From the NCBI GenBank assembly GCA_001824135.1, contig MHWM01000032.1:1-35718 (forward strand): a stretch of DNA of 35,718 nt, written 5' to 3'. Numbering within the stretch: the first letter of the stretch is position 1; each line of letters opens with the position of its first letter. Position numbers and translations under genes: made by a program. Origin of the DNA: Candidatus Zambryskibacteria bacterium RIFCSPLOWO2_02_FULL_39_14 (GTDB lineage Bacteria > Patescibacteriota > Minisyncoccia > Phycocordibacterales > Zambryskibacteraceae). This document shows positions 11,258-23,471 of this stretch, piece after piece. The notes beneath the pieces were generated by a model. That model searched no databases. It saw only the letters and a list, made by a program, of their open reading frames with translations, and was not told the DNA's origin.

Positions 11258-12499
11258 TTATGGGTTCAATCTTTTTACATCCCTTGGTAGATACGTCGCT
11301 TCGCGGACATTTGGTAAGTCAAGAATTTTCATTATAAAGCGACCGGGGCCCACACCACCACCACCGTGCGGAGGACAACCGTAGCGGAAAAAATTTAGAT
11401 AATCTTTGAGCTGTTCAAGATCCATTTTCTTCTCTTTTGCTTGTTTTTCTAGAACTTCTATTCTATGTTCACGTTGAGCCAGAGTAGTAACTTCAATACC
11501 TCGATAAAGTAGATCAGCTCGGCGACTTCTATCAGACCCCTCTTCCAATCGCATATGATAGAAAGCACTCTTAGATTTGTGATATTCAGTAATAAACACA
11601 AATTCGTGTTTATATTCTTTTAATACATATTCAGAAATAGCTCTTTCCTCTTCTGGCGAAAGATCATGTTCTTCTCCCGACTGAACAACTTCAAGTGACT
11701 TAATAATTTTTTTAGCTTCTACTATAGTCATTCTAGGAAATGGACTTACGGGTACAGTTATATTAAGTTCTGGAAAAACTTTTTTGAGCTGTTCAAATCC
11801 AGCAATAATCATCCCCTCTTCTGCATCCATAATGTCGTTATGGTCATTGATGTAAGAAATTTCAAAATCCCAACCTGTAAACTCTGTCATGTGTCTGGTA
11901 GTAAAAGATTCTTCCGCGCGAAATACAGGAGAGACCATGAAGACTCTCTCGAACCCAGATGCTATAGCCATTTGTTTATAAAACTGTGGTGATTGAGCTA
12001 GATATGCCTTGCGGTCAAAATATTTTACTTCAAAAACTTCTGCACCACTTTCAGAAGGCATACTCATCAGAGCTGGAGGATAAAGTTGAATATATTTATT
12101 TTCGTCAAAATATTTACGCCACCCTTTTTCAAACTCTGTCCATACTTTGAAAATTTTTGCTTTCTCTGGTTTTCTAAGATCAAGCCAACGATAATCAAAC
12201 CTTATTGGTGCCTCAGTTTCTTCACTACCCTTTACTACCACAGGTATAGGAAGTTCAGCTGCAGCAACCGATAAAACTTCGATCTTAGTCGGATGCATCT
12301 CACTACCACCCGGAGCTTGGGGAGCATCTTTCATATCTCCTATCACTCTGATAACTGATTCAAGAGATAAATTTTTAGCAGTCTCAAATTCTTTATTATC
12401 TATAGTTACCACCACTTGAGTCAGGCCTTGCATATTGCGAACAATGATAAAAATAATCTTAGACTGAACTCTTAATGCATGTATAAATCCTTGTATCAT
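11258..12499 (-). CDS. aspS: aspartyl-tRNA synthetase, archaeal/eukaryotic-type class IIb (short N-terminus)
   Basis: Class II motif 2 FRAEESFTTRHMTEF, motif 3 PPHGGGGVGPGRF, and the C-terminal LPRDVKRLNP tail typical of type-2 AspRS. The OB domain starts almost at residue 1. The ATG overlaps the trpS stop (ATGA). Confidence 0.82.
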   Translation of the reverse strand: MIQGFIHALRVQSKIIFIIVRNMQGLTQVVVTIDNKEFETAKNLSLESVIRVIGDMKDAPQAPGGSEMHPTKIEVLSVAAAELPIPVVVKGSEETEAPIRFDYRWLDLRKPEKAKIFKVWTEFEKGWRKYFDENKYIQLYPPALMSMPSESGAEVFEVKYFDRKAYLAQSPQFYKQMAIASGFERVFMVSPVFRAEESFTTRHMTEFTGWDFEISYINDHNDIMDAEEGMIIAGFEQLKKVFPELNITVPVSPFPRMTIVEAKKIIKSLEVVQSGEEHDLSPEEERAISEYVLKEYKHEFVFITEYHKSKSAFYHMRLEEGSDRSRRADLLYRGIEVTTLAQREHRIEVLEKQAKEKKMDLEQLKDYLNFFRYGCPPHGGGGVGPGRFIMKILDLPNVREATYLPRDVKRLNP

Positions 12500-13449
12500 G
12501 AAATTTTTAATCCGACTTTTTTCCGGATACTATCCATTTTCTTCTCAATACACTTATGTGCCACATTGCCACCTGTCTTAAGGACATCAAGTACTGCTTT
12601 CTTATCTTTCTTCAACAATTCCCTTTTTTCTCGCATGGGAGTTATAAATTTCTTAAGATCAGATGCTAATATTTCTTTAAGCTCTTTATACTGACCTTTT
12701 TTCTCTGTATAAAGATTATCTAACTCACCCTTATCACGTACAAGAGCATGTATAGCATATACATTCTCCGGTTTCTCTCCGGAAGAATCGGTTACTATAC
12801 CCATTACGGCTTTCTCTATATCTTCATCTGTGGCAAAAAGTTCTATAGTATTACCATAACTCTTACTCATTTTTTTACCATCAATACCCTGTACGGTAGC
12901 GACACTTTCCAATATAAGCGGTTCTGGCAACTTGAAAGTTTCTCCGAATATGCGATTAAATTTCTCTGCTATATCGCGAGTGATCTCAATATGTTGCTTC
13001 TGGTCTTGTCCAACCGGTACCACATCAGCATCTTGTATTAAAATATCAGCCGCCATCAAGACAGGATAGTCAAATAGTCCCACATTAGCTTCTTTACCGC
13101 TTGCCTTAGCATCTTTATATGCATGGGCGCGTTCCAGATACGGCACGGTGGTCAAGCAGTTAAATATCCAAGCAAGCTCCGTCACTTGTGGCACATCTGA
13201 TTGTTTATAAATAACCACATCTTTAGGATCCAATCCTATAGCCAAGTAGTCCAGAAGTACATCTAGAGTATTTTTCTCAAGTTCTTTCTGATTCTGGACA
13301 GTGGTCAGAGCATGCAAATCAGCGATAAATATGTAGCATTTGTAGTCATCCTGCAGTTCTACAAACTGCTTCATAGCTCCAAAATAATTACCTATATGTG
13401 GCCTGCCGGTCGGCTTAACCCCAGAAACCAGTATCTTTTTATCTGTCAT
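12496..13449 (-). CDS. trpS: tryptophanyl-tRNA synthetase
   Basis: GVKPTGRPHIGNYFGA (HIGH), the VPVGQDQKQH motif and KMSKS. Length 317 aa. Confidence 0.93.
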   Translation of the reverse strand: MTDKKILVSGVKPTGRPHIGNYFGAMKQFVELQDDYKCYIFIADLHALTTVQNQKELEKNTLDVLLDYLAIGLDPKDVVIYKQSDVPQVTELAWIFNCLTTVPYLERAHAYKDAKASGKEANVGLFDYPVLMAADILIQDADVVPVGQDQKQHIEITRDIAEKFNRIFGETFKLPEPLILESVATVQGIDGKKMSKSYGNTIELFATDEDIEKAVMGIVTDSSGEKPENVYAIHALVRDKGELDNLYTEKKGQYKELKEILASDLKKFITPMREKRELLKKDKKAVLDVLKTGGNVAHKCIEKKMDSIRKKVGLKIS

Positions 13450-13550: not shown

Positions 13551-15440
13551 CTAATTATTTATTTTAGCTAAAATTGCTTCAGCCTTAATTACCATACTGG
13601 AGGTAGCCGGATCATCAATCTTATCCTTATTATTGTATTTCTTTACACTTAATATAAATGACTCCAGTTTTTTTATAACTAACTTTTCTGCTAATTTTAG
13701 CTTGAACTCGTGCAATTTCGGATATTTCTTACCAATTGATCTAATGAGTTCCGCTTCTTTCAAAGTTGCAAGAACAAATTTTAAATCATTGTTCAATGAT
13801 TGATATATACCTTTATTATTTATTTTTCCATCTTTGTAATACTCTTCTAGATCAATTAATAACTCATTTACTAAATCAATGATTGACGATTCTTCTAAAT
13901 CTGGTTTTGTTATTATAGGTGCACTTATTTTGACTGGTACATTTTCATAATGATTAACATCAACCACATATTCAATCTTTTCCCCTTCTACAACATTTTT
14001 TTGGACGGTAACAATATTATCATTATCATCGACAAAACTAGCCACAGCCATATGATATTCACCATCTGCGGTACCAATAAGCTCTACCTCATATTCGCCT
14101 GAAAGTCCGTCAGGGATGATTATCATTTTTACTCCATTCGGATCATTCTCGCCAGTATAAATTGCTTCGGGAATCTGATTAGAATCTTTTGTGATTATTC
14201 TGTTTTGCGGATCAGTAATCTTGACTGCCACAGGTGAAGCGAACCAGAATGTTGTTATATTGTTCGGCTCTGTCGGTGGTTCAAAATCACCAACAGGATT
14301 AGGAAGGCCAAGAGCAGAAAAAACTTCTGGAATCGCCATAGTTGGTAACCCCCCATGATTTGAGTTAATTTCCTTTTGTGTTAAGCGCTCATCAATGTCC
14401 CACTCATCAGACTGTGCTCGCACAAGAGGAATAAACACTGCAAATATTTTCTGCCAGAAATTTTGATTACTTCTAGATAACACAGGTCCTATCAAATCAA
14501 ATTCATTTAAGAAAGCACTCGAGAGTAATACCCTATTGTCACCCTCTGGATTATTGCGAATTGGATTTATTGGCTCCGGTATTCCATCAGCCCATAATTT
14601 TGTTTCTAAAGCTGGTCTCTCTACAACAGAAATATTTCCTACTGTGCCAGTGCCAGTACCTGCTATTACGGTGATACGACCAAGCTCCTTCAGATTTTGC
14701 ATACTCTCTGACTCATTAAGATTTTCTAGAAAAGGATTCGTTGCTTCAGTAAGACTACTGTATGGCTTTACATTGTCATTCGAGTCAGAAAGAAAATCAT
14801 ATGTTGGCAGTAATTCTCCTATAGAAGTGATGAACGTGTGAATGGTGTCATAGTAATCAGATGTATTAGCACTGAAAGTAGTCATAAACCAAAGTATAAA
14901 TTTTATACCGTTCTTGTCTGATTGGCTCCAATTTCCAGGAACTTCACCTCCCTCCCATAGGGTGTAAACATCTGACGACCCATAATTTGGTGTACCGAGC
15001 ATTACTAATTGATCCACATCATTTCGGTTTATATAATCTTCACTTTGTATATAGCTCCTAGACACTAGTCCTCCCATACTATGAGCAATGATATTGACTT
15101 TAGTCGAAGAGGAGTTAGCAAGAGCCCTATCTATAGTAGGAATTAAATAATTTATCGCAGAGTCCTCATTGCTTTTTCTCCAGTCATAAAAAGCAATAAA
15201 AAGATTATTGTCAAGTACATACCCCTCTTCAATTAATTCATCAATGAGTTTATCCCAAGTATGATCAGTTGAATGGAAATCCCACGTATCGGGTGTACTC
15301 CTCCCCAGCAATACCGACCAATTCCAAGAACCCATTATTCCTGGAACAAGTACTATGGGCTCTAATGTATTTGCCTGCGCATAGCTCAAAGATGGATTAA
15401 TAGAAGCAATAATTAGAAAACTAAATATTAATTTTTTCAT
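13551..15440 (-). CDS. secreted alpha/beta-hydrolase, lipase/esterase-like (PGAP1/LCAT-like N-domain) with beta-rich and helical C-terminal domains
   Basis: Signal peptide MKKLIFSFLIIASINPSLSYA, an oxyanion-type VLVPGIMGS, and the nucleophile elbow IIAHSMGG (GxSxG). About 250 aa of extra C-terminal sequence follows, with a beta-sandwich-like part and a helical tail. Length 629 aa. Confidence 0.7.
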   Translation of the reverse strand: MKKLIFSFLIIASINPSLSYAQANTLEPIVLVPGIMGSWNWSVLLGRSTPDTWDFHSTDHTWDKLIDELIEEGYVLDNNLFIAFYDWRKSNEDSAINYLIPTIDRALANSSSTKVNIIAHSMGGLVSRSYIQSEDYINRNDVDQLVMLGTPNYGSSDVYTLWEGGEVPGNWSQSDKNGIKFILWFMTTFSANTSDYYDTIHTFITSIGELLPTYDFLSDSNDNVKPYSSLTEATNPFLENLNESESMQNLKELGRITVIAGTGTGTVGNISVVERPALETKLWADGIPEPINPIRNNPEGDNRVLLSSAFLNEFDLIGPVLSRSNQNFWQKIFAVFIPLVRAQSDEWDIDERLTQKEINSNHGGLPTMAIPEVFSALGLPNPVGDFEPPTEPNNITTFWFASPVAVKITDPQNRIITKDSNQIPEAIYTGENDPNGVKMIIIPDGLSGEYEVELIGTADGEYHMAVASFVDDNDNIVTVQKNVVEGEKIEYVVDVNHYENVPVKISAPIITKPDLEESSIIDLVNELLIDLEEYYKDGKINNKGIYQSLNNDLKFVLATLKEAELIRSIGKKYPKLHEFKLKLAEKLVIKKLESFILSVKKYNNKDKIDDPATSSMVIKAEAILAKINN

Positions 15441-15442
15441 AA

Positions 15443-15922
15443 TTATAAATAATTATTACCAATATTGACTAGTGCCGATACAGATAGAAACATGTACAGT
15501 ATAAATAATAAAATTAAAAATATTAGTCCAAATACACCGGTAAGTGATAGGTTTAAAAAAGTAAATTTATCTCTTATTAACTTAGTGCAATAGAAAGCTA
15601 GTAACGGCCATCCAAACATTGTAATAAAGATCATTTTGAAACTTGGACCAGAAAGTACATTTCTCAACCAACCAGTATTTGTAAAACCATTATAGAGCCA
15701 CATATCAATCTTTACCAAAATCACCCATTCCCAAATAAAATAAATAGCAAAAGAAGAAACATAAGCTCCCACTACCTGCTTCCAAGAAACAGGTAAATTT
15801 TTTTTCCATTTCTTGATACCAAGATAAATGAATGGCGAGAAGACAAGCAGGATTGAGATTATAAGTACTCCCCACTCGATCACAAAGGCCAACGTCGGAT
15901 TAGGAGTCAAATACGGTTTCAT
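15443..15922 (-). CDS. hypothetical integral membrane protein (about 4 TM, 159 aa)
   Basis: ORF with four hydrophobic segments and no recognised motif. Its stop is 2 nt before the lipase-like gene start, so the two are probably co-transcribed. Confidence 0.5.
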   Translation of the reverse strand: MKPYLTPNPTLAFVIEWGVLIISILLVFSPFIYLGIKKWKKNLPVSWKQVVGAYVSSFAIYFIWEWVILVKIDMWLYNGFTNTGWLRNVLSGPSFKMIFITMFGWPLLAFYCTKLIRDKFTFLNLSLTGVFGLIFLILLFILYMFLSVSALVNIGNNYL

Positions 15923-15964
15923 TAAAATAAATTATACACCAGAAATATTAGACTGTCATTTTCT

Positions 15965-15990
15965 TTTATTCTACCATTCGCGCGAATTAG
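15965..15990 (-). promoter_or_regulatory. palindromic operator/promoter module, copy 2 (between arsR stop and membrane-protein gene)
   Basis: Core ATTCGCGCGAAT at 15976-15987. On the - strand it reads ctaattcgcgcgaaTGgTAGAATaaa, an extended -10. The 26 nt at 15965-15990 are identical to 16263-16288. A separate perfect TATAAT (15931-15936, - strand) lies 8 nt before the 15922 ATG. Confidence 0.5.
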
Positions 15991-15992
15991 AC

Positions 15993-16259
15993 TTATAAAA
16001 CCCTTAAAAATCGTTTTACTATATCTGGAGCATCTTTATTAATAGAATAGAACATTTGAAGACCGCGTTGTTCTCTTTCCAGAGCATTTGCGTTTGCAAG
16101 AATATATAAATGTTTAGAAGTTGCCTTGAATGATAGCTTTATATGGTCTGCAATCTCTCCAACACTCTTTTCTTTTTCTTTCTGTAAAAAATAAACGATT
16201 AATAGGCGTCGTCTGTTGGCTAGAGCTTTTAAAATTCTTTCTAGTTCTTTTTCTTCCAT
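15993..16259 (-). CDS. ArsR/SmtB-family winged-helix transcriptional regulator (88 aa)
   Basis: LKALANRRRLLIVYFL...SVGEIADHIKLSFKATSKHLYILANANALEREQRG is a typical ArsR HTH. No obvious metal-ligand Cys/His cluster was seen (no Cys at all). Confidence 0.8.
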   Translation of the reverse strand: MEEKELERILKALANRRRLLIVYFLQKEKEKSVGEIADHIKLSFKATSKHLYILANANALEREQRGLQMFYSINKDAPDIVKRFLRVL

Positions 16260-16262
16260 ATC

Positions 16263-16296
16263 TTTATTCTACCATTCGCGCGAATTAGGTCATAGA
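16263..16296 (-). promoter_or_regulatory. palindromic operator/promoter module, copy 3 (arsR promoter)
   Basis: Core ATTCGCGCGAAT at 16274-16285. On the - strand it reads tctaTGACCtaattcgcgcgaaTGgTAGAATaaagatATG. This gives a -35-like TGAC, the palindrome in the spacer, and an extended -10 TGnTAGAAT (16266-16274) only 6 nt before the arsR ATG, which suggests a leaderless or near-leaderless transcript. Confidence 0.6.
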
Positions 16297-16348
16297 TGGA
16301 TTGTGGGTGATAAGTGTAGCTAGTAAATTTGATTATAAGATAAGTAAT

Positions 16349-17830
16349 TTAAGCTACAGGCAACTCCATGTAGAAAGTAGAACCTTGGTTAGGACCAGCA
16401 GATTCAGCCCAAACACGGCCTTTGTGAGCCTCTACAACACCCTTGACAAAAGAGAGACCAAAACCAGTGGAATTAATATTAATCTTTAGTGAGTCTTTGT
16501 CCCTAGCTCCCTTAGTAAAGAGCTTGAGCTTAAGTTCATCAGACAAACCTGCACCAGTATCTTTAACAGAAAAAATGATTTTATTATTTAGATGTTCGAG
16601 ATTCACAATTATACCACCTTCGGAAGTATAGATGACGGAATTGTCTAATAAGTTTCTAAGTGCCTGATAAAGTTGAGCCTTGTCCCCTTTTATCCCATAA
16701 TCACCTTCGGATATATGTATTTCAAAAGATAAATTTTTTTCATTTGCTATTTTTTTCTGCTTTTCTGCAACATCCAGCACAATTTCTTTGAAATCTAGTT
16801 GCTCCATATTATATGTGTAGGAACCTTTATCTATATTTGAAGCATCTAGAAAATCTTTCACAAACCCTACACCCTCTGTCAATGACCTTAAACCTTCTTC
16901 AAGCATTGGTTTAGATTTATCTGTACAGGCCCCATAGTCTGGCTCTGTCAGAAGTTCTGAGAAAATGCTGCGAGATTTAGAAAAATAACCCTTGATCTGA
17001 TGGTTGATGATATGGAGCAAATTGGTTTGCCCCTCGTTGGCTATTTGAAGCTGATTATTTAGCCTCTCTAATGATATCGTTGATGCTCTCCATATATAAA
17101 TAATAATGATTACCAATATAGAGATGATTAGAACTAGAAAACCAATAAATATTAGAAATGGTTGCAATGTCTGTCTAGTTAAAGTAAAGAAATCCTCAGC
17201 CTTGATATCAGTTGCCAAGACTGCAACCACATTGCCAATCTCATCTCTTATCGGTGCGTAACCAGTAAGCACAGTGCCATAATCATCAGTGTACAATTCC
17301 TCACTAGTTAAAGGTCCTTTGTATGCAGCGAAGGCTTCCGGTATATCGACGGCCTCTGGGTAATCTTGCCCAGGCCACTGTAATTTATCTGGTCCATCGG
17401 GTTCTATCTTCCCATCACGATTTACATCTACATATCTTGTCTCATCATTACTTATATTCGCATAAGGATCGATAGAATCGGCGTCTACTACAAATTCTAT
17501 TTGTGTTGGGTCATCCGCCTTCTTGCGAAAAATATACATGAAGACAATATCTTTATTACTGTATTTCGCTCTATTCAATTGGGTAACAACGTGAATCCAG
17601 GCTGGCTTATGCCAATCCTCCTCGACCTTGAGCTCCTCAAGATCCTTTGCATCAACATTAGATGCTACAGTAATAGATATGGTCAACAACCTTTCTCGAA
17701 GATTGTTCGTCAGAAGGTTAACTGTATGTTGATATAAAACTTGTGAGGCAAAGATAACTATAACAATAGAAATGATGAGCAATATGATGGCAAAAGTGAC
17801 AGGACTTGTAAATTTCTTGATTCTGTTCAT
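16349..17830 (-). CDS. sensor histidine kinase with extracytoplasmic Cache-like domain (no cognate response regulator in window)
   Basis: Two TM helices flank about 190 aa containing DDYGTVLTGYAPIRDEIGNVVAVLATDI (Cache-like). The H-box region is LLHIINHQIKGYF (atypical), the N-box LRNLLDNSVIYT, G1 VKDTGAGL and G2 STGFGLSFVKG. Confidence 0.8.
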   Translation of the reverse strand: MNRIKKFTSPVTFAIILLIISIVIVIFASQVLYQHTVNLLTNNLRERLLTISITVASNVDAKDLEELKVEEDWHKPAWIHVVTQLNRAKYSNKDIVFMYIFRKKADDPTQIEFVVDADSIDPYANISNDETRYVDVNRDGKIEPDGPDKLQWPGQDYPEAVDIPEAFAAYKGPLTSEELYTDDYGTVLTGYAPIRDEIGNVVAVLATDIKAEDFFTLTRQTLQPFLIFIGFLVLIISILVIIIIYIWRASTISLERLNNQLQIANEGQTNLLHIINHQIKGYFSKSRSIFSELLTEPDYGACTDKSKPMLEEGLRSLTEGVGFVKDFLDASNIDKGSYTYNMEQLDFKEIVLDVAEKQKKIANEKNLSFEIHISEGDYGIKGDKAQLYQALRNLLDNSVIYTSEGGIIVNLEHLNNKIIFSVKDTGAGLSDELKLKLFTKGARDKDSLKININSTGFGLSFVKGVVEAHKGRVWAESAGPNQGSTFYMELPVA

Positions 17831-17852
17831 CTTTTTATCCTATATAAGAATA

Positions 17853-19715
17853 TTATACATCCAATAAGTCCTTTATATCACTCTTATCTATCTCCCAGAG
17901 AAAGTTCGTTAATTTGGGCCCAGATTTTTTACCAAATAATAATTGGTATAAATTTTGGAAAAAGATGCGTTGATTCGCTATATTTCTTTCCTCGGTAGCA
18001 TTAGCACTCTTCGGCAAAGCGTACAGTAGAGTGATAAATTTATTCAAATTTAATTTTGATTTACGGTCTAGTAATTTATTTAATTTTTTGATTAATTTAA
18101 TATCATCATCAGTCATACTCACTATATACTTCACATTTGGTACCTCTAGAAGGGTGTGAGAATATGCTGGATTGAGATGTATAAAACGCGATTTTTTATC
18201 TTTAATCAAATCCAAGTCTAAATAAATATTATTAGAATTTATATTATCATGGCTTGAATCGCTTGAATTAGATAGTTTCAACTTCAACAATTTTCCAATG
18301 TCCTTCTCTTGTATTTTAGTAAAGATGTCATATTTCTGCTGGTGAAAATTTAATGTTTTTTTATTGAGAATTGGTTTGACAATCCATTTGTAAATATCAC
18401 GCTGAGGTAATGTCGGCATAGTAATGATTTTCCCATTTATACTTAAGCTTGATGCTCCGTACCCATACCCTCCATAAGGATTGATGCCCCTTTCTACACC
18501 ACGAGCATGCAGATGAGTATTGTGAATAAAAGAGGATTTATCATGAAGTAATTTTCCGTGATAAATTTTACCAATCAATTTATTTATATAATTACTTGTC
18601 CCGTAGAGAGTCACGTACATCGCATTCATCAGGTAACGATCATTTTCGAAGTATGATGCAAGTTCAGAATTATCTGCATACTCCTGAACAAAAATTGTAG
18701 GAGCAAATATTTCGTTATAATTTCCTCCACATCTAAGCGGTTTACAAATTATTGTTGGTTCAACTATAGCTTCACTCGTTCTAATAACCCCTTTCGTAGA
18801 AGAATCAAGCCATTCCCTATTTTTTATAAGGAAATCCTCAATTCTAACCAAGTCGTCTGGGTCGCTAATTGGACCAACTCTAGAAGATTTATTGTTATAA
18901 GAACCGATTTTAACTTTACTTAATCCTTCTCTCAATTGTCGCAAGAAATTTGGTAAAATATCTTTATGTACAAGAACTGCATTTGGAGCGGCACAGTCTT
19001 GCCCTTGATTATAGAGTCCTAGAGTTAAGACTGCTTCAATAGCTTTATTTAGATTGGCATCCTTACTGACTACTACTGGATTATGACCAGCTCCATTTGA
19101 AATAAATAGAGTTCGTTTGTCAAAAATAAACCGTAATTTACTTGCATGCGATGGAAGTCCAGTAAAAATAACTGCTTCAGTAGCAGGTATGCTTTCTTTA
19201 GTTTTTGGGTTCACTAATAATGCAGATCTTTCTCTCAAGAATTCGCTCCTCTGCTTCTGCGAAACAAAAATATTTGGAAATAATTTTTTAATTTCCAGAA
19301 GATCCAGCATATCTTGAAAAAAAAGCATCATGCTCTGTGGAATTCGGAAATGCACTTCACTTGCCATCAAAGATGGAACGATGACAAAACACGAAAATGC
19401 ATAGAGTGGCTGATTTCTTGGTAGGAATGAAGCGACTGCTCCAACTCTCAAGAAAAAAAATTTTTTATTTTCCCTGAGGTTTCTAAGTAAATCTAAGGCT
19501 CTATTTACCTCATCTTGTACAACCTCAAAACTCTCATATCTAAGCAAAATATCAGTTAGCTTCTCAAAATGAACTTCAATAAGATCAGCTAGTTGTTTAG
19601 CTTTTTTATCTACTTCAAAAAAATCAATTTTTCTGTAAGGAGAGAAATACTTACTTGAAACTACTTGTTTCTTTAACACGGGTTTTCTCCGGACTGAAAG
19701 TAATGTGTTCACCAT
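17853..19715 (-). CDS. aldehyde-dehydrogenase-superfamily protein (reductase/acylating-like) fused to a C-terminal module resembling the C-terminus of class I lysyl-tRNA synthetase
   Basis: ALDH-like landmarks: VIFTGLPSHASKL (cf. FTGS..G), ISNGAGHNPVVVSKDANL (cf. ELGGK.P.IV..DAD, with no Glu at the general-base position) and NQGQDCAAPNAVLV (catalytic Cys motif GQ.C). The last roughly 90 aa, ...RIFFQNLYQLLFGKKSGPKLTNFLWEID..., resemble the LysK C-terminal ...[17 protein letters not shown]... motif recalled from memory. Confidence 0.55.
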   Translation of the reverse strand: MVNTLLSVRRKPVLKKQVVSSKYFSPYRKIDFFEVDKKAKQLADLIEVHFEKLTDILLRYESFEVVQDEVNRALDLLRNLRENKKFFFLRVGAVASFLPRNQPLYAFSCFVIVPSLMASEVHFRIPQSMMLFFQDMLDLLEIKKLFPNIFVSQKQRSEFLRERSALLVNPKTKESIPATEAVIFTGLPSHASKLRFIFDKRTLFISNGAGHNPVVVSKDANLNKAIEAVLTLGLYNQGQDCAAPNAVLVHKDILPNFLRQLREGLSKVKIGSYNNKSSRVGPISDPDDLVRIEDFLIKNREWLDSSTKGVIRTSEAIVEPTIICKPLRCGGNYNEIFAPTIFVQEYADNSELASYFENDRYLMNAMYVTLYGTSNYINKLIGKIYHGKLLHDKSSFIHNTHLHARGVERGINPYGGYGYGASSLSINGKIITMPTLPQRDIYKWIVKPILNKKTLNFHQQKYDIFTKIQEKDIGKLLKLKLSNSSDSSHDNINSNNIYLDLDLIKDKKSRFIHLNPAYSHTLLEVPNVKYIVSMTDDDIKLIKKLNKLLDRKSKLNLNKFITLLYALPKSANATEERNIANQRIFFQNLYQLLFGKKSGPKLTNFLWEIDKSDIKDLLDV

Positions 19716-19727
19716 TAATTTAAGAGG

Positions 19728-20069
19728 TCAATTATGAAGTTGCATTAGCACAATTCCTGAAATAGATAGTAGTATTCCGACAAGCTGATACATTGAAACA
19801 TTACTCCATTCTCCAAAAATGAATAGACCAACAAGAATAGTGCTTATAGTAAGAAGCGAATCAACTATTGCCGAAGTCATACTCAAACCTAGTTTTGAAG
19901 TAACTAGTCCGAAAGTTATGAATACCAGTGGAGAAACAATTAAAAGAGCTAGAAACCAAATTGTACTGAATTTTTCTTCCTTGCTTGCCCATACAGCACT
20001 TATGGAATTGGCTGAAAGAGCCACTAAAACAGCACTCAGAATGAAGAACCAGGTCCTTAAAAATGCCAT
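19728..20069 (-). CDS. small 4-TM membrane protein, SMR/DMT(EamA-half)-like (ArnE/ArnF-like size and topology)
   Basis: 113 aa with four hydrophobic helices and no EmrE-type TM1 Glu. Its stop is 12 nt upstream of the ALDH-like gene start. Confidence 0.5.
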   Translation of the reverse strand: MAFLRTWFFILSAVLVALSANSISAVWASKEEKFSTIWFLALLIVSPLVFITFGLVTSKLGLSMTSAIVDSLLTISTILVGLFIFGEWSNVSMYQLVGILLSISGIVLMQLHN

Positions 20070-20127
20070 TTAAGCATTATAACACGAATATTTCTCTGTA
20101 AGTAAATCGAGAATTTTAATTAAGATC

Positions 20128-21012
20128 TCACAACCCTAATTTTTTTAAATCTTCTACTACCTTGCGAGCTTCTTTGGAAAGTTTATCGGGTATTTGAATA
20201 GAGATGCGTATATATAAATCACCACGCCCAGATTTACCAGAGTTAGCGTGGTTGTATGGCACACCTTTACCCTTCACTCGCAAGATAGTGCCATGTTTAG
20301 TACCAACAGGCACCTTGAGAGTAATCTCACCATCAAGACTATGAATATTTTTTTCTGCACCGAGAAGAGCTTCTGTGAGTTTAACCACTAAATCCATGAT
20401 CAAGTTATAACCTTCTTTACGTAAATATGGATGCTTACGAACATGAATCTTTACATACAAATCACCCGGTACTCCACCCTCAAGAATTTCACCGTGGCCA
20501 GAGAGACGGATCATTTGTCCATCATCAATACCCGGTGGTACAGAAATAGAAACTTCTTTCTGCTTTACAAATTTAGAATTAATTACGACCTTTCTATCTA
20601 CGCCGAAGATAGATTCTTGGAAAGAAAGTTCAATATCTACCGCGATATCACGTCCGCGTCTGACACGGCGACCACCAAATATACTAGAGAGGATGTCACC
20701 GAGATCTCCAGTATCAAATCCAGCATTACCGAAACCGGAGAAATCAAAACCAAATCCAGACGGGTCAAATCCAGCACTTCTAAAGCCCCCAGTCCCAGTT
20801 CCACCACCACCTACTGAACCAAATGCATCATATTGCGCCCGCTTCTTTTTATCAGAGAGTACCGAGTAGGCTTCACTTGCCTCTTTAAATTTTGCTTCGT
20901 TACCGCCAGATTTATCCGGATGATAAACATGCGCAAGTTTACGGAAAGCTTTTTTTACCTCCTCTTCGCTTGCATCTTTGTTAACTCCTAGAATTTTATA
21001 ATAGTCTTTCAT
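20128..21012 (-). CDS. dnaJ: J-domain co-chaperone, DnaJ/CbpA-type lacking the Cys-rich zinc-finger domain
   Basis: KDYYKILGV...HPDK J-domain, a G/F-rich linker, and C-terminal substrate-binding domains ([18 protein letters not shown]). The protein contains no cysteine, so no CxxCxGxG repeats. It sits directly downstream of dnaK. Confidence 0.85.
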
Positions 21013-21036
21013 AGGTTAACTTATAACTTTAAGCTT

Positions 21037-22944
21037 CTAGCTATTGGCTTTGGGTTCGGAATCATCCTGTTGGGCAGGTTTAACTTCTGCATCTTTTATA
21101 TCACCTTCTTGCTTCGGCACGCCTGAGCCTTCGGCGGAGGTGGCAGGATTCTTACTCATAAACTCACCAATCTTCTGCAATTCTGTAGAAAGAGCTTCTG
21201 TGGCAAATTTTATGGTCTCTAGAGTTCCGGTCCCTTGCTCTTTTTTTAATGCATCAACTTTTCCATTAACAGCAGTTTTTATATCCTCCGGTATATTTGT
21301 AGTGTCTTTCAAAGATTTCTCGGCTGTATAGATTAGCTGTTCAGCAATATTTTTTACATCTACCAAGTCTTTTTTCTTCTGATCTTCGACTGCATTTGAT
21401 TCTGCGTCTTTCTGCATTTTTTCGATATCAGTTTTAGAGAGACCAGAGCTTGCTTCTATCCTGATAGACTGCTCCTTGCCTGTTGTTTTATCCTTAGCCT
21501 TAACACTTAAGATCCCGTTGGCATCTACATCAAAAGTAACTTCGATCTGGGGCATACCGCGCCCTGCTGGTGGTATGCCATCTAATATAAAGCGTCCTAG
21601 AGACTTATTATCAGCCGCCATAGCTCTTTCTCCTTGCACAATGTGTATTTCTACAGAAGTCTGATTATCAGCGGCAGTGGAGAAAATCTGTGATTTAGCA
21701 GACGGAACTGTAGTATTTTTCTCAATCAACTTCGTAGCAACACCACCCATAGTTTCTATACCAAGTGAAAGAGGAATCACATCCAAGAGAAGAACGTCTT
21801 TAACATCACCAGCAAGAATTCCACCTTGAATAGCAGCACCAAGCGCTACAACTTCGTCCGGATTTATAGATTTATTTGGCTCTTTGCCGAAAAATTTCTT
21901 AACCGCATCAGCGATAGCCGGCATACGCGTCTGCCCACCTACTAGTATAACCTCATCAATAACACCTACTTTAAAAGGTGAGGCCTCCATAGCGCGTTTG
22001 GTAATTTCCATAGCCCGGTCTATAAACTCTCTTGAAAGTTCCTCAAGTTTTGCTCTTGAAAGCTTTAGAAGCAAATGTTTAGGACCAGAGGCATCAGAAG
22101 TGACAAACGGTATATTTACTTCTGTTTCAGTAGTGGTTGAAAGTTCTATTTTAGCTTTCTCAGCTGCTTCATCTAGACGTTGAAGTGCCAAAGCATCAGA
22201 TCTAACATCAATACCAGACTCTTTCTTAAACTCTTCGGCAATGTAATTGAGAATCTTCTGATCAATATCTTTACCACCCAAATGAGAATCACCGTCAGTG
22301 GATTTTACTTCGACCACATCATCACCAACTTCCAATATCGAGATGTCGAAAGTACCTCCACCGAAATCAAAGACGGCGATCTTTTCATTTTTCTTTTTAT
22401 TAAATCCATAAGCGAGAGCGGCGGCGGTTGGTTCGTTGATAATGCGTTTAACATCAAGACCTGCAATTTGACCAGCATCTTTGGTAGCTTTTCTTTGAGC
22501 ATCATTGAAATAAGCCGGCACAGTAATAATAGCTTCAGTAATCTTTTCTCCCAACTTAGCTTCAGCATCTACTTTAAGCTTCTGCAAAATCATGGCGGAA
22601 ATTTCTTCCGGACGATTTTCTTTATCAGCCATTTTAACCATGACAGAACCATCTTTAGCAGAAAGAATTTCAAAAGGCACAGTGGACTTATCCTTCTGGA
22701 CAGCCGGATCAGAGAAAGTGTGGCCGATAAAGCGTTTGATACCGAAAATAGTATTTTTGGGGTTAGTCACAGCTTGGCGCTTAGCCAAAAGACCCACCAG
22801 ACGATCGCCTGTTTTAGAAACAGCTACTATAGAAGGAGTAGTGCGTACACCTTCAGCATTTTCTATAATTTTTGGTTGACCTGCTTCCATGACCGCAAGA
22901 GCGGAGTTAGTGGTGCCGAGATCTATTCCAATGATTTTAGCCAT
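21037..22944 (-). CDS. dnaK: molecular chaperone DnaK (Hsp70)
   Basis: [35 protein letters not shown] and a C-terminal lid. Length 635 aa. Confidence 0.97.
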
Positions 22945-22955
22945 GATGTTTAAGT

Positions 22956-23471
22956 TTAATTGCTAATAAATTCCCCTACTTTTACTTTTGCCGGACGGAT
23001 CACTTTGCCATTTAACTTATACCCTTTCTGCATAACTTCAAGCACCAGATGATCTTGTTCTTTTTTCTCTGTACTAATCATCCCCAATGCTTCGTGTTCA
23101 TGCGGATTAAATGTCTTGCCAACTGGGTCTAATTCTTCAAGACCTTTGACCTTGAGTATAGCTACTAACTGATTATAGATAGGCTCAAGGTCTTTGCGGT
23201 CTAGAGACAGAGATATATTAAAACTATCTAGCACAGGAATCAATTCTTCTATCAATCCTTGATTCGCAAACTTAATAAATTCTAGCTTAGCTTCTTCGTC
23301 ACGACGCCGGAGATTGGCGAAATCTGCCTGACTTCTCTGCCATCCGTCTAAATATTCTTTAGCTTTCGTTTCAGCCTGTTTAATCTTTTCTCTAAGCTTC
23401 TTCTCTTTTTCAGCATAATTTACCGAATCAAGGTCATCTTCTATAACGATGTCTTCATCTTCCTTATTCAT
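22956..23471 (-). CDS. grpE: nucleotide exchange factor GrpE
   Basis: A coiled-coil N-terminus followed by [11 protein letters not shown]...[20 protein letters not shown], a GrpE C-terminal beta domain. Located upstream of dnaK. Confidence 0.88.

Follow-up and report, generated by a model that had tools for sequence, protein, structure and literature searches.

An aldehyde dehydrogenase-fold enzyme of Patescibacteria with a C-terminal module derived from class I lysyl-tRNA synthetase, a candidate Lys-tRNA-dependent reductase

The window analysed here comprises positions 1 to 35,718 (forward strand) of contig MHWM01000032.1 (assembly GCA_001824135.1) from Candidatus Zambryskibacteria bacterium RIFCSPLOWO2_02_FULL_39_14, a member of the Patescibacteria, or candidate phyla radiation (CPR). 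On its minus strand, a gene (17853..19715, stop codon 17853-17855) encodes a protein of 620 residues in which an aldehyde dehydrogenase (ALDH) fold is followed by a C-terminal module homologous, by sequence, to the end of class I lysyl-tRNA synthetase (LysRS), an architecture that we call the short form. We propose, with a probability of about one half, that this protein is a Lys-tRNA(Lys)-dependent reductase, in which a lysyl thioester formed on Cys241 would be reduced by NAD(P)H to lysine aldehyde, the product being then processed and exported. The main argument for an enzyme working on tRNA(Lys)-bound lysine is twofold: (i) the same ALDH module is fused convergently to both classes of LysRS in relatives, and (ii) the anticodon-binding part of the synthetase is retained where the fusions have been truncated. 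An earlier reading of the DNA letters, made with no database searches (hereafter the sequence-only reading), had described two minus-strand open reading frames (ORFs) 12 nucleotides apart; both lie where it placed them, and all four peptide strings that it quoted are present.

The catalytic module and the C-terminal module

The ALDH-like catalytic module, with its NAD(P)-binding and catalytic domains, covers residues 25-450 (18366..19643, minus strand), as delimited by Foldseek and residue mapping. When the 620-residue protein was scanned against Pfam, Aldedh (PF00171) was the single family matched (E=3.8e-22, residues 178-364, 78.9 bits, cutoff 23). With 118 homologues as input, AlphaFold gave a model (predicted local distance difference test, pLDDT, 90.7; predicted template modelling score, pTM, 0.87) that Foldseek superposed on solved ALDHs over about 450 columns (about 16% identity, E~1e-19), from which it follows that residues ~25-450 form a complete ALDH fold. 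Both by score threshold and by fold, the protein is a member of the Aldehyde dehydrogenase superfamily (PF00171), in agreement with the sequence-only reading. Neither of the two other Pfam families brought up by that reading was matched by the 620-residue protein, LuxC (PF05893) giving nothing at E<=10 and tRNA-synt_1f (PF01921) no match. Scores around the 21-bit LuxC threshold were obtained for a few relatives (L043 22.0, P0221 22.0, P0253 20.6, P0257 20.3, P0214 18.5).

Active-site residues were mapped with HMMER alignments to solved ALDHs and their codons were verified. N101 (PRN101QP, codon 19413-19415) aligns to the oxyanion-hole Asn169 (PWN169FP), C241 in the motif GQDC (D240-C241, 18993-18998) to the nucleophile Cys302, E335 (18711-18713) and F337 of E335-x-F337-x-P to Glu399 and Phe401, and N207 (19095-19097) to the general-base Glu268 of M-E-L-G-G-H-A-P. 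N101, N207, C241 and E335 are invariant among 118 family members, and the catalytic signature of the clade is conserved across every architecture described below. In the alignment with the fusions, Lys192/Glu195 (V-K-A-P-E) correspond to R124 (19344-19346) and Q/H127 in the short forms, the Lys being kept in the fusions, and FTG186 is conserved. The residues expected for NAD(P) binding (Lys192, Glu399, Phe401 and the GxTxxG region) are thus represented and, with an Arg at the Lys192 position and conserved E335, F337 and FTG, the cofactor site is, by sequence, intact.

In ordinary ALDHs, Glu268 activates the water molecule for thioester hydrolysis (PMC8160307). The Glu of the E-L-G-G-K motif that marks the hydrolytic, acid-forming enzymes is replaced here by the invariant Asn207, as the sequence-only reading had noticed together with the nucleophilic Cys. 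An ordinary acid-forming ALDH was rejected on this ground, and the residue pattern indicates a non-hydrolytic, thioester-forming ALDH. Among solved structures, amino-aldehyde dehydrogenases (YdcW/PatD, plant AMADH, BADH) come closest, and YdcW also carries GQDC. When the ALDH module was used as query against 1.84 billion representative proteins, 2279 were matched at E<=1e-3 and 211 at E<=1e-30; such few matches indicate that the module belongs to a small, distinct and very divergent clade.

The C-terminal helical module spans residues ~510-620 (17856..18188, minus strand), with limits given by the profile search of the Protein Data Bank (PDB), TIGR00467 and hhalign. Taken as a single sequence, the last 188 residues matched NCBIfam TIGR00467 lysS_arch at profile positions 420-505 of 515 (E=2e-5, 23.3 bits against a cutoff of 147.55) and the structure 1irx (E=0.003), while Pfam gave no match for them at E<=10. 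A profile made of 37 family C-termini retrieved one entry from the entire PDB, again 1irx, the class I LysRS of P. horikoshii, over residues 443-517 of 523 (E=3e-10), so that the C-terminal helical module of the class I LysRS family (TIGR00467 / PF01921) is recognised by profile search. The two proteins share the motif F-x-x-x-Y-x-L-x-x-G-x-x-x-G-P-R/K-L-x-x-F-L, and Y590 and G599-P600 are the invariant residues of the module. The module is basic (median pI of the last 100 residues across the family 9.35, versus 6.8 for the ALDH part) and, modelled alone with AF2, forms a small helical domain with a pLDDT of 91.3. The resemblance to class I LysRS claimed by the sequence-only reading is therefore borne out by TIGR00467, by 1irx and by homology to the C-terminus of complete ALDH::LysRS-I fusions. 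We conclude from these sequence comparisons that residues ~510-620 are homologous to the last ~80-110 residues of class I LysRS (LysK; 1irx), which are part of its alpha-helical anticodon-binding region.

The profile-profile alignment by hhalign against the ALDH::LysRS-I fusions equated residues 25-450 of the query with residues 2-425 of the fusion and residues ~510-620 with ~870-979, the ~440-residue LysRS core of the fusions falling into the linker gap, and by BLASTP residues 527-620 were aligned to 884-979 of the fusion. The 620-residue protein is thus a fusion minus the synthetase core. The variable and partly disordered linker (residues ~451-509; 18189..18365, minus strand), with pLDDT below 50 at residues 484-491 and low conservation in A1 and A2, appears to stand in place of the deleted core. 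Unlike class I LysRS, the protein has no Rossmann fold, no HIGH/KMSKS motifs and lacks most of the anticodon-binding region; without this fold and these motifs it cannot aminoacylate tRNA.

Fusions to both classes of lysyl-tRNA synthetase

A scan of species-representative genomes gave 50 loci. In four of them (L038, L041, L042, L046), the ALDH module is the N-terminus of a protein of 985-1117 residues, the rest of which consists of an entire class I LysRS (PF01921 E~1e-100, TIGR00467 340 bits), and in L045 the two parts are encoded by adjacent genes. Fusions in the order ALDH then LysRS-I form about 45 clusters and keep the HIGH-like and KMS motifs. The reverse order, with LysRS-I at the N-terminus and the ALDH module at the C-terminus, is found in P0225, P0229 and P0234. 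In more than 20 further clusters, the ALDH module is followed by an OB-fold anticodon domain and then by a class II synthetase, the best models being those of lysine-tRNA ligase (PRK00484 2.9e-61, lysS_bact 3.2e-46, LysX 6.8e-43, versus 7e-9 for AspRS). Assembly chimeras were considered for the class II fusions and rejected in view of the number of clusters and of contigs of up to 962 kb. By sequence, the ALDH module has been fused independently to two unrelated synthetases, which share only lysine, ATP and tRNA(Lys).

Both kinds of fusion have been truncated. For class I, the sizes form a series from 985 to ~690 and then ~620 residues, in which the intermediates of ~690 residues keep the last ~230 residues of LysRS-I. 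For class II, P0256 and P0279 keep an OB-fold of the LysRS-II type with a degenerated catalytic core; P0256 adjoins genes for TonB-dependent receptors, which assigns it to a Gram-negative bacterium outside the CPR. As judged from the alignments, truncation has spared the anticodon-binding part in both classes. The synthetase core being deleted in the short form, the substrate would have to come from the cell's own LysRS. Other fusions join an aminotransferase to the ALDH module (P0296, P0269).

In one ALDH::LysRS-I fusion of 1042 residues (P0164), Trp stands at the positions of Gly conserved in all relatives (LFISNWAWHNP, YWWYWRWSS). This replacement throughout the protein suggests that its source organism reads UGA as Gly (code 25, e.g., Gracilibacteria/Absconditabacteria) and that the protein was translated with the wrong table.

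The 620-residue protein itself has an identical counterpart in Parcubacteria group bacterium GW2011_GWB1_38_8, which NCBI lists as 'Lysyl-tRNA synthetase (Class I)'. Its full-length homologues form at least 120 clusters (52-63% identity), practically all of them from assemblies of Patescibacteria/CPR, and go under the names 'aldehyde dehydrogenase family protein' or, in several Joint Genome Institute (JGI) records, 'lysyl-tRNA synthetase class 1'. In view of the absence of the whole LysRS catalytic core from the sequence, the NCBI name is a misannotation. Neither Pfam nor NCBIfam holds a family specific to this architecture, NCBIfam offers no equivalog, and our literature searches brought up neither an account of an ALDH-LysRS fusion nor any aminoacyl-tRNA reductase apart from glutamyl-tRNA reductase (GluTR); the sequence-only reading, which knew of no such family, was right in this respect. 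The enzyme would thus be an undescribed type of the ALDH fold, new in its architecture, while tRNA-dependent synthetase-linked enzymes and GluTR-like chemistry are already known. A second copy of the ALDH-like module was observed in L024 (1736-2965, minus strand), where a paralogue of 409 residues with N-G-A-G-V-N-P and GQDC lies 2.4 kb from a short form of 623 residues.

Gene neighbourhood of the enzyme

On the minus strand of the window, the order is a 113-residue ORF (19728..20069), 12 nucleotides, the 620-residue ORF, 22 nucleotides and a 493-residue ORF (16349..17830). The first encodes a small membrane protein with four hydrophobic segments and is a candidate exporter of the product. Its Pfam scores stay under threshold (Multi_Drug_Res 12.4 bits vs 23.7, TMEM234 17.9 vs 30.1), as do those of its orthologues, with EamA in 11, TMEM234 in 10 and small multidrug resistance (SMR) in 3 of 31 of them, and no ArnE/F model is matched. 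The recurrent sub-threshold similarity points to an affinity with the drug/metabolite transporters. The four transmembrane segments given by the sequence-only reading hence stand and the affinity is a putative one, while its labels 'SMR' and 'ArnE/F-like' are not established.

Among 42 short-form loci, 26 encode a homologue of this four-segment protein directly upstream and on the same strand, and 35 have a small multi-pass membrane protein of some kind in that place, including an unrelated family of ~210 residues to which no family could be assigned. The protein of the window is moreover orthologous over its full length (62-64 bits) to proteins of 107-116 residues, with precomputed EamA hits, in operons of the ALDH::LysRS-II fusions (L060-L062). 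Since this orthology is full-length, the pairing of the enzyme with the membrane protein spans very distant bacteria, whatever the synthetase class, and the pairing pointed out by the sequence-only reading is conserved across phyla. These class II operons (L060 11685-14676; L061 3879-6906; L062 11624-14552; L051 3136-4509) have the order ALDH::LysRS-II, DUF1254/DUF1214, a sulfotransferase-family protein (Sulfotransfer_3) and the EamA protein; no description of the DUF1254/DUF1214 operon partners was found in our literature searches. Next to the class II operon of L060 and L061, a receiver-only regulator and a kinase/GAF protein of 2395 residues are encoded on the opposite strand. The reverse-orientation class I fusions are followed by a major facilitator superfamily (MFS) transporter gene with a 4-nucleotide overlap, and the cluster of P0229 comprises a short-chain dehydrogenase/reductase (SDR), a class III aminotransferase and an MFS_3 exporter. 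A transporter is thus adjacent in every lineage, namely the four-segment protein in CPR and class II operons, MFS, MFS_3, or the ~210-residue membrane protein in some CPR.

The third ORF of the unit encodes a membrane sensor histidine kinase, which the sequence-only reading did not mention; among the neighbours of the enzyme gene in CPR, it is the best conserved. It has two transmembrane segments, an extracytoplasmic domain and a HATPase_c domain (Pfam, E=1.4e-20), HisKA being found also in an orthologue; its sensor domain had no match in Pfam and no family assignment. A kinase of this type (~500 residues) lies directly downstream in 32 of the 42 short-form loci, the kinase family is present in 39 of the 50 loci with a median gap of 26 nucleotides, and the pair of enzyme and kinase persists where all remaining neighbours differ. 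Receiver-only response regulators of ~125 residues stand beside the kinase in L033, L040, L036, L014 and L043, and no DNA-binding response regulator was seen there. A tRNA-Lys(CTT) gene follows right after the kinase gene in L043 (12793-12866).

The unit is preceded by a GrpE-DnaK-DnaJ operon (20128-23471, minus strand) and followed by genes for TrpRS and a non-discriminating-type AspRS (11258-13449, minus strand), an embedding seen again in about a dozen Paceibacteria-type loci. Neither a genuine LysRS-I gene nor any tRNA gene is present in the 35.7-kb window, and a promoter/terminator scan over 15900-21100 gave signals at or under the shuffle expectation. Two other proteins are encoded downstream of the kinase on the minus strand: (i) just 3' of it, one of 88 residues (15993-16259), which reads as a putative helix-turn-helix regulator of the ArsR type, and (ii) one of 629 residues (13551-15440) with an N-terminal signal-like sequence and an apparent serine-hydrolase-type motif, AHSMGG.

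Proposed reaction, alternatives and significance

Starting from the fold, the residue pattern, the homology of the C-terminal module, the fusions and the synteny, we infer a substrate, a direction of reaction and a product. In the proposed mechanism, (i) the LysRS-I-derived module would recognise tRNA(Lys); (ii) the aminoacyl ester would be attacked by Cys241, giving a lysyl-thioester stabilised in the oxyanion hole by Asn101, as the conserved residues suggest; (iii) with Asn207 in place of Glu the thioester would escape hydrolysis, and NAD(P)H bound at the conserved cofactor site would reduce it to lysine aldehyde; and (iv) as suggested by the conserved synteny, the cationic product or a derivative would cross the membrane through the four-segment or MFS protein. 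The aminotransferase, SDR and sulfotransferase partners may process the product; their presence as neighbours or fusions fits the processing of an aldehyde and gives support to a reductase. In the full fusions, the LysRS would make Lys-tRNA in cis, and the protein could then activate, tether and reduce the amino acid with tRNA as the acyl carrier. An aminoacyl-tRNA-dependent reductase had been offered as speculation by the sequence-only reading; it has become the leading hypothesis, short of proof, owing to the fusions to both LysRS classes, the loss of the core with the anticodon part kept, and the aminotransferase, SDR and exporter partners.

The proposed chemistry has its model in GluTR (HemA), which performs Cys-thioester and NADPH chemistry on Glu-tRNA. 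In both cases, an active-site Cys would attack the aminoacyl-tRNA ester and NAD(P)H would reduce the thioester to an alpha-amino aldehyde, which in the GluTR pathway is handled by HemL, a protein of the aminotransferase fold, while aminotransferases are fused or adjacent in relatives of our enzyme. The resemblance is mechanistic and hypothetical: the Pfam scan matched Aldedh and neither the GluTR N-terminal nor the shikimate-dehydrogenase-like NADPH domain, so that no homology exists, and here the fold is that of ALDH, the amino acid would be Lys instead of Glu, and tRNA recognition would go through a borrowed synthetase module. A LysRS that channels Lys-tRNA to its consumer is known in LysX, a fusion of the MprF-like lysyl-phosphatidylglycerol synthase to class II LysRS (NF002821) whose product is destined for the membrane and not for translation. 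The LysX model is matched by the LysRS part of our class II relatives; by contrast with LysX, however, an ALDH-fold oxidoreductase here takes the place of the membrane transferase, LysRS of either class serves as partner, and the protein of the window has no synthetase core. With PduP/EutE/AdhE, LuxC and ProA, which act on activated acyl groups, the enzyme shares the ALDH fold, the Cys nucleophile, the NAD(P) site and the lack of the hydrolytic Glu, but it has no LuxC match, is nearest to amino-aldehyde dehydrogenases, and belongs to a separate clade that is uniquely tied to LysRS parts. Finally, the proposed logic of the full fusions is that of carboxylic acid reductases and Lys2, with LysRS for adenylation, the tRNA 3' end as carrier and ALDH as reductase, whereas no part is related to its counterpart, a class I/II synthetase standing for the ANL adenylation domain, tRNA for phosphopantetheine and ALDH for the SDR-type R domain.

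Several points weigh against the Lys-tRNA-dependent reductase. We know of no ALDH-superfamily enzyme that uses aminoacyl-tRNA, and free lysine aldehyde is to our knowledge not a metabolite and would be unstable. Acyl chemistry dependent on coenzyme A (CoA) or phosphate would accommodate Asn in place of Glu268 just as well and, where a fusion might be the sole LysRS, the reductase would compete with translation for Lys-tRNA. A tRNA-Lys gene was found near the enzyme gene in just 2 of 43 loci. The ALDH module also occurs alone (~400 residues) with no C-terminal module, as in L043 (9533-11260), where a version of 575 residues has a ~150-residue N-terminal extension, no LysRS-derived tail and still the kinase downstream, and it is also fused to Pol-beta nucleotidyltransferases, GNAT and an AstE/AspA hydrolase; membership of the clade therefore does not require a tRNA-binding appendage. 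The Pol-beta-type domain, placed C-terminal to the ALDH module (P0254, P0255, P0265, P0273, P0280, P0303; L053-L055), is the commonest partner among the distant members scanned; its ANT(3'')/MNT-like similarity is weak (E~0.3), its gene context is of the housekeeping type, and it may act on an RNA 3' end or adenylylate a substrate.

Structure comparison of the tail also counts against the proposal. The full-length Foldseek search was dominated by ALDHs and gave nothing informative on the tail, and the isolated C-terminal module retrieved nothing significant from the PDB, 1irx of P. horikoshii included, in the comparison that the sequence-only reading had proposed. The homology to LysRS-I consequently rests on the sequence profiles and the fusions. 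The only compact superposition of the isolated module was with a bacterial GluRS (3afh, TMq 0.51, E=4, non-significant); the helical anticodon-binding domains of GluRS and class I LysRS are related (PMC12088422). Contact of the ~100 retained residues with the anticodon is thus putative.

Among the alternatives, the first is an enzyme that depends on Lys-tRNA and is not a reductase: an amine would resolve the lysyl-thioester on Cys241, by intramolecular cyclisation to alpha-amino-epsilon-caprolactam or by transfer to an acceptor, or the enzyme would work oxidatively in the manner of acylating ALDHs, moving an acyl group derived from an aldehyde onto the amine of Lys-tRNA or onto the tRNA. The evidence from fusions and retention for a link with tRNA(Lys) applies to it equally, with the hydrolytic Glu lost, the thioester need only be resolved by an agent that is not water, caprolactam can form from lysine thioesters in nonribosomal peptide synthetase systems, and the GNAT and aminotransferase partners could fit amine chemistry. 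The NAD(P)-binding residues (Lys192/Arg124, Glu335, Phe337, FTG) are nonetheless conserved clade-wide and would be needless for pure acyl transfer, and the SDR, aminotransferase and sulfotransferase neighbours suit a free aldehyde better, which leaves this alternative as a fairly improbable one.

A tRNA-independent ALDH or reductase acting on CoA, phosphate or thioester substrates in the manner of PduP/EutE/LuxC/ProA, with the tail as a structural or protein-interaction remnant of an ancestral fusion, would account for the weak LuxC matches of some relatives, for the stand-alone forms and those with no C-terminal module, and for the N-G-A-G-H-N-P motif, which we take to resemble the G-x-G-A-G-N-x-P of acylating ALDHs. 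The pTM of 0.87 suggests in addition that the C-terminal module may pack on the ALDH body in the model and could be kept for stability. Such an enzyme would, however, leave unexplained the convergent fusion to both LysRS classes and in both orientations, as well as the retention of the anticodon-binding part in each class, and the conserved residues of the module are those conserved in genuine LysRS-I; we hold it to be unlikely.

A mainly regulatory role seems more doubtful still. The synthetase remnant would bind tRNA(Lys) and inform the histidine kinase of how far this tRNA is charged, or of a redox or aldehyde signal, loosely like the HisRS-like domain of GCN2. It is in favour of this role that no CPR neighbour is conserved better than the kinase, which keeps its place where other neighbours differ, that it is found only with forms that have lost the synthetase core, and that receiver-only regulators are near in several loci. 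On the other hand, all catalytic and cofactor residues are invariant, which argues for real catalysis, the sensor domain of the kinase is extracytoplasmic and faces outward, and in place of this kinase, biosynthetic and transporter genes adjoin the class II and reverse-orientation relatives. That the protein is a class I LysRS, as the NCBI and several JGI names and the weak TIGR00467 match over the last ~90 residues would have it, has next to no probability and was rejected, the entire Rossmann core with HIGH and KMSKS being absent by comparison with the fusions, with no PF01921 match and a TIGR00467 score of 23.3 bits against a cutoff of 147.55.

Whatever the reaction, the misannotated short form, which is widespread in Patescibacteria, can falsely complete the set of aminoacyl-tRNA synthetases when CPR genomes are scored. 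If the Lys-tRNA-dependent reductase is right, GluTR would no longer be the only kind of aminoacyl-tRNA reductase: there would be a second one, unrelated in fold, and with it a pathway to a lysine-derived metabolite fed by the translation machinery. This hypothesis can be tested directly with purified proteins, thanks to the convergent fusions to both LysRS classes. Since Patescibacteria have a minimal metabolism and an episymbiotic life, the unit of enzyme, exporter and sensor kinase is a strong candidate for surface modification or signalling. On a wider and more speculative view, which we consider improbable, the family would found the ALDH-fold aminoacyl-tRNA reductases, and the CPR unit of four-segment protein, enzyme and kinase would make, export and sense a cationic lysine-derived signal, such as an aldehyde, an amine or a compound of the pyrazine type. 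This would amount to tRNA-dependent signalling between cells, or between symbiont and host, in organisms otherwise almost devoid of biosynthesis.

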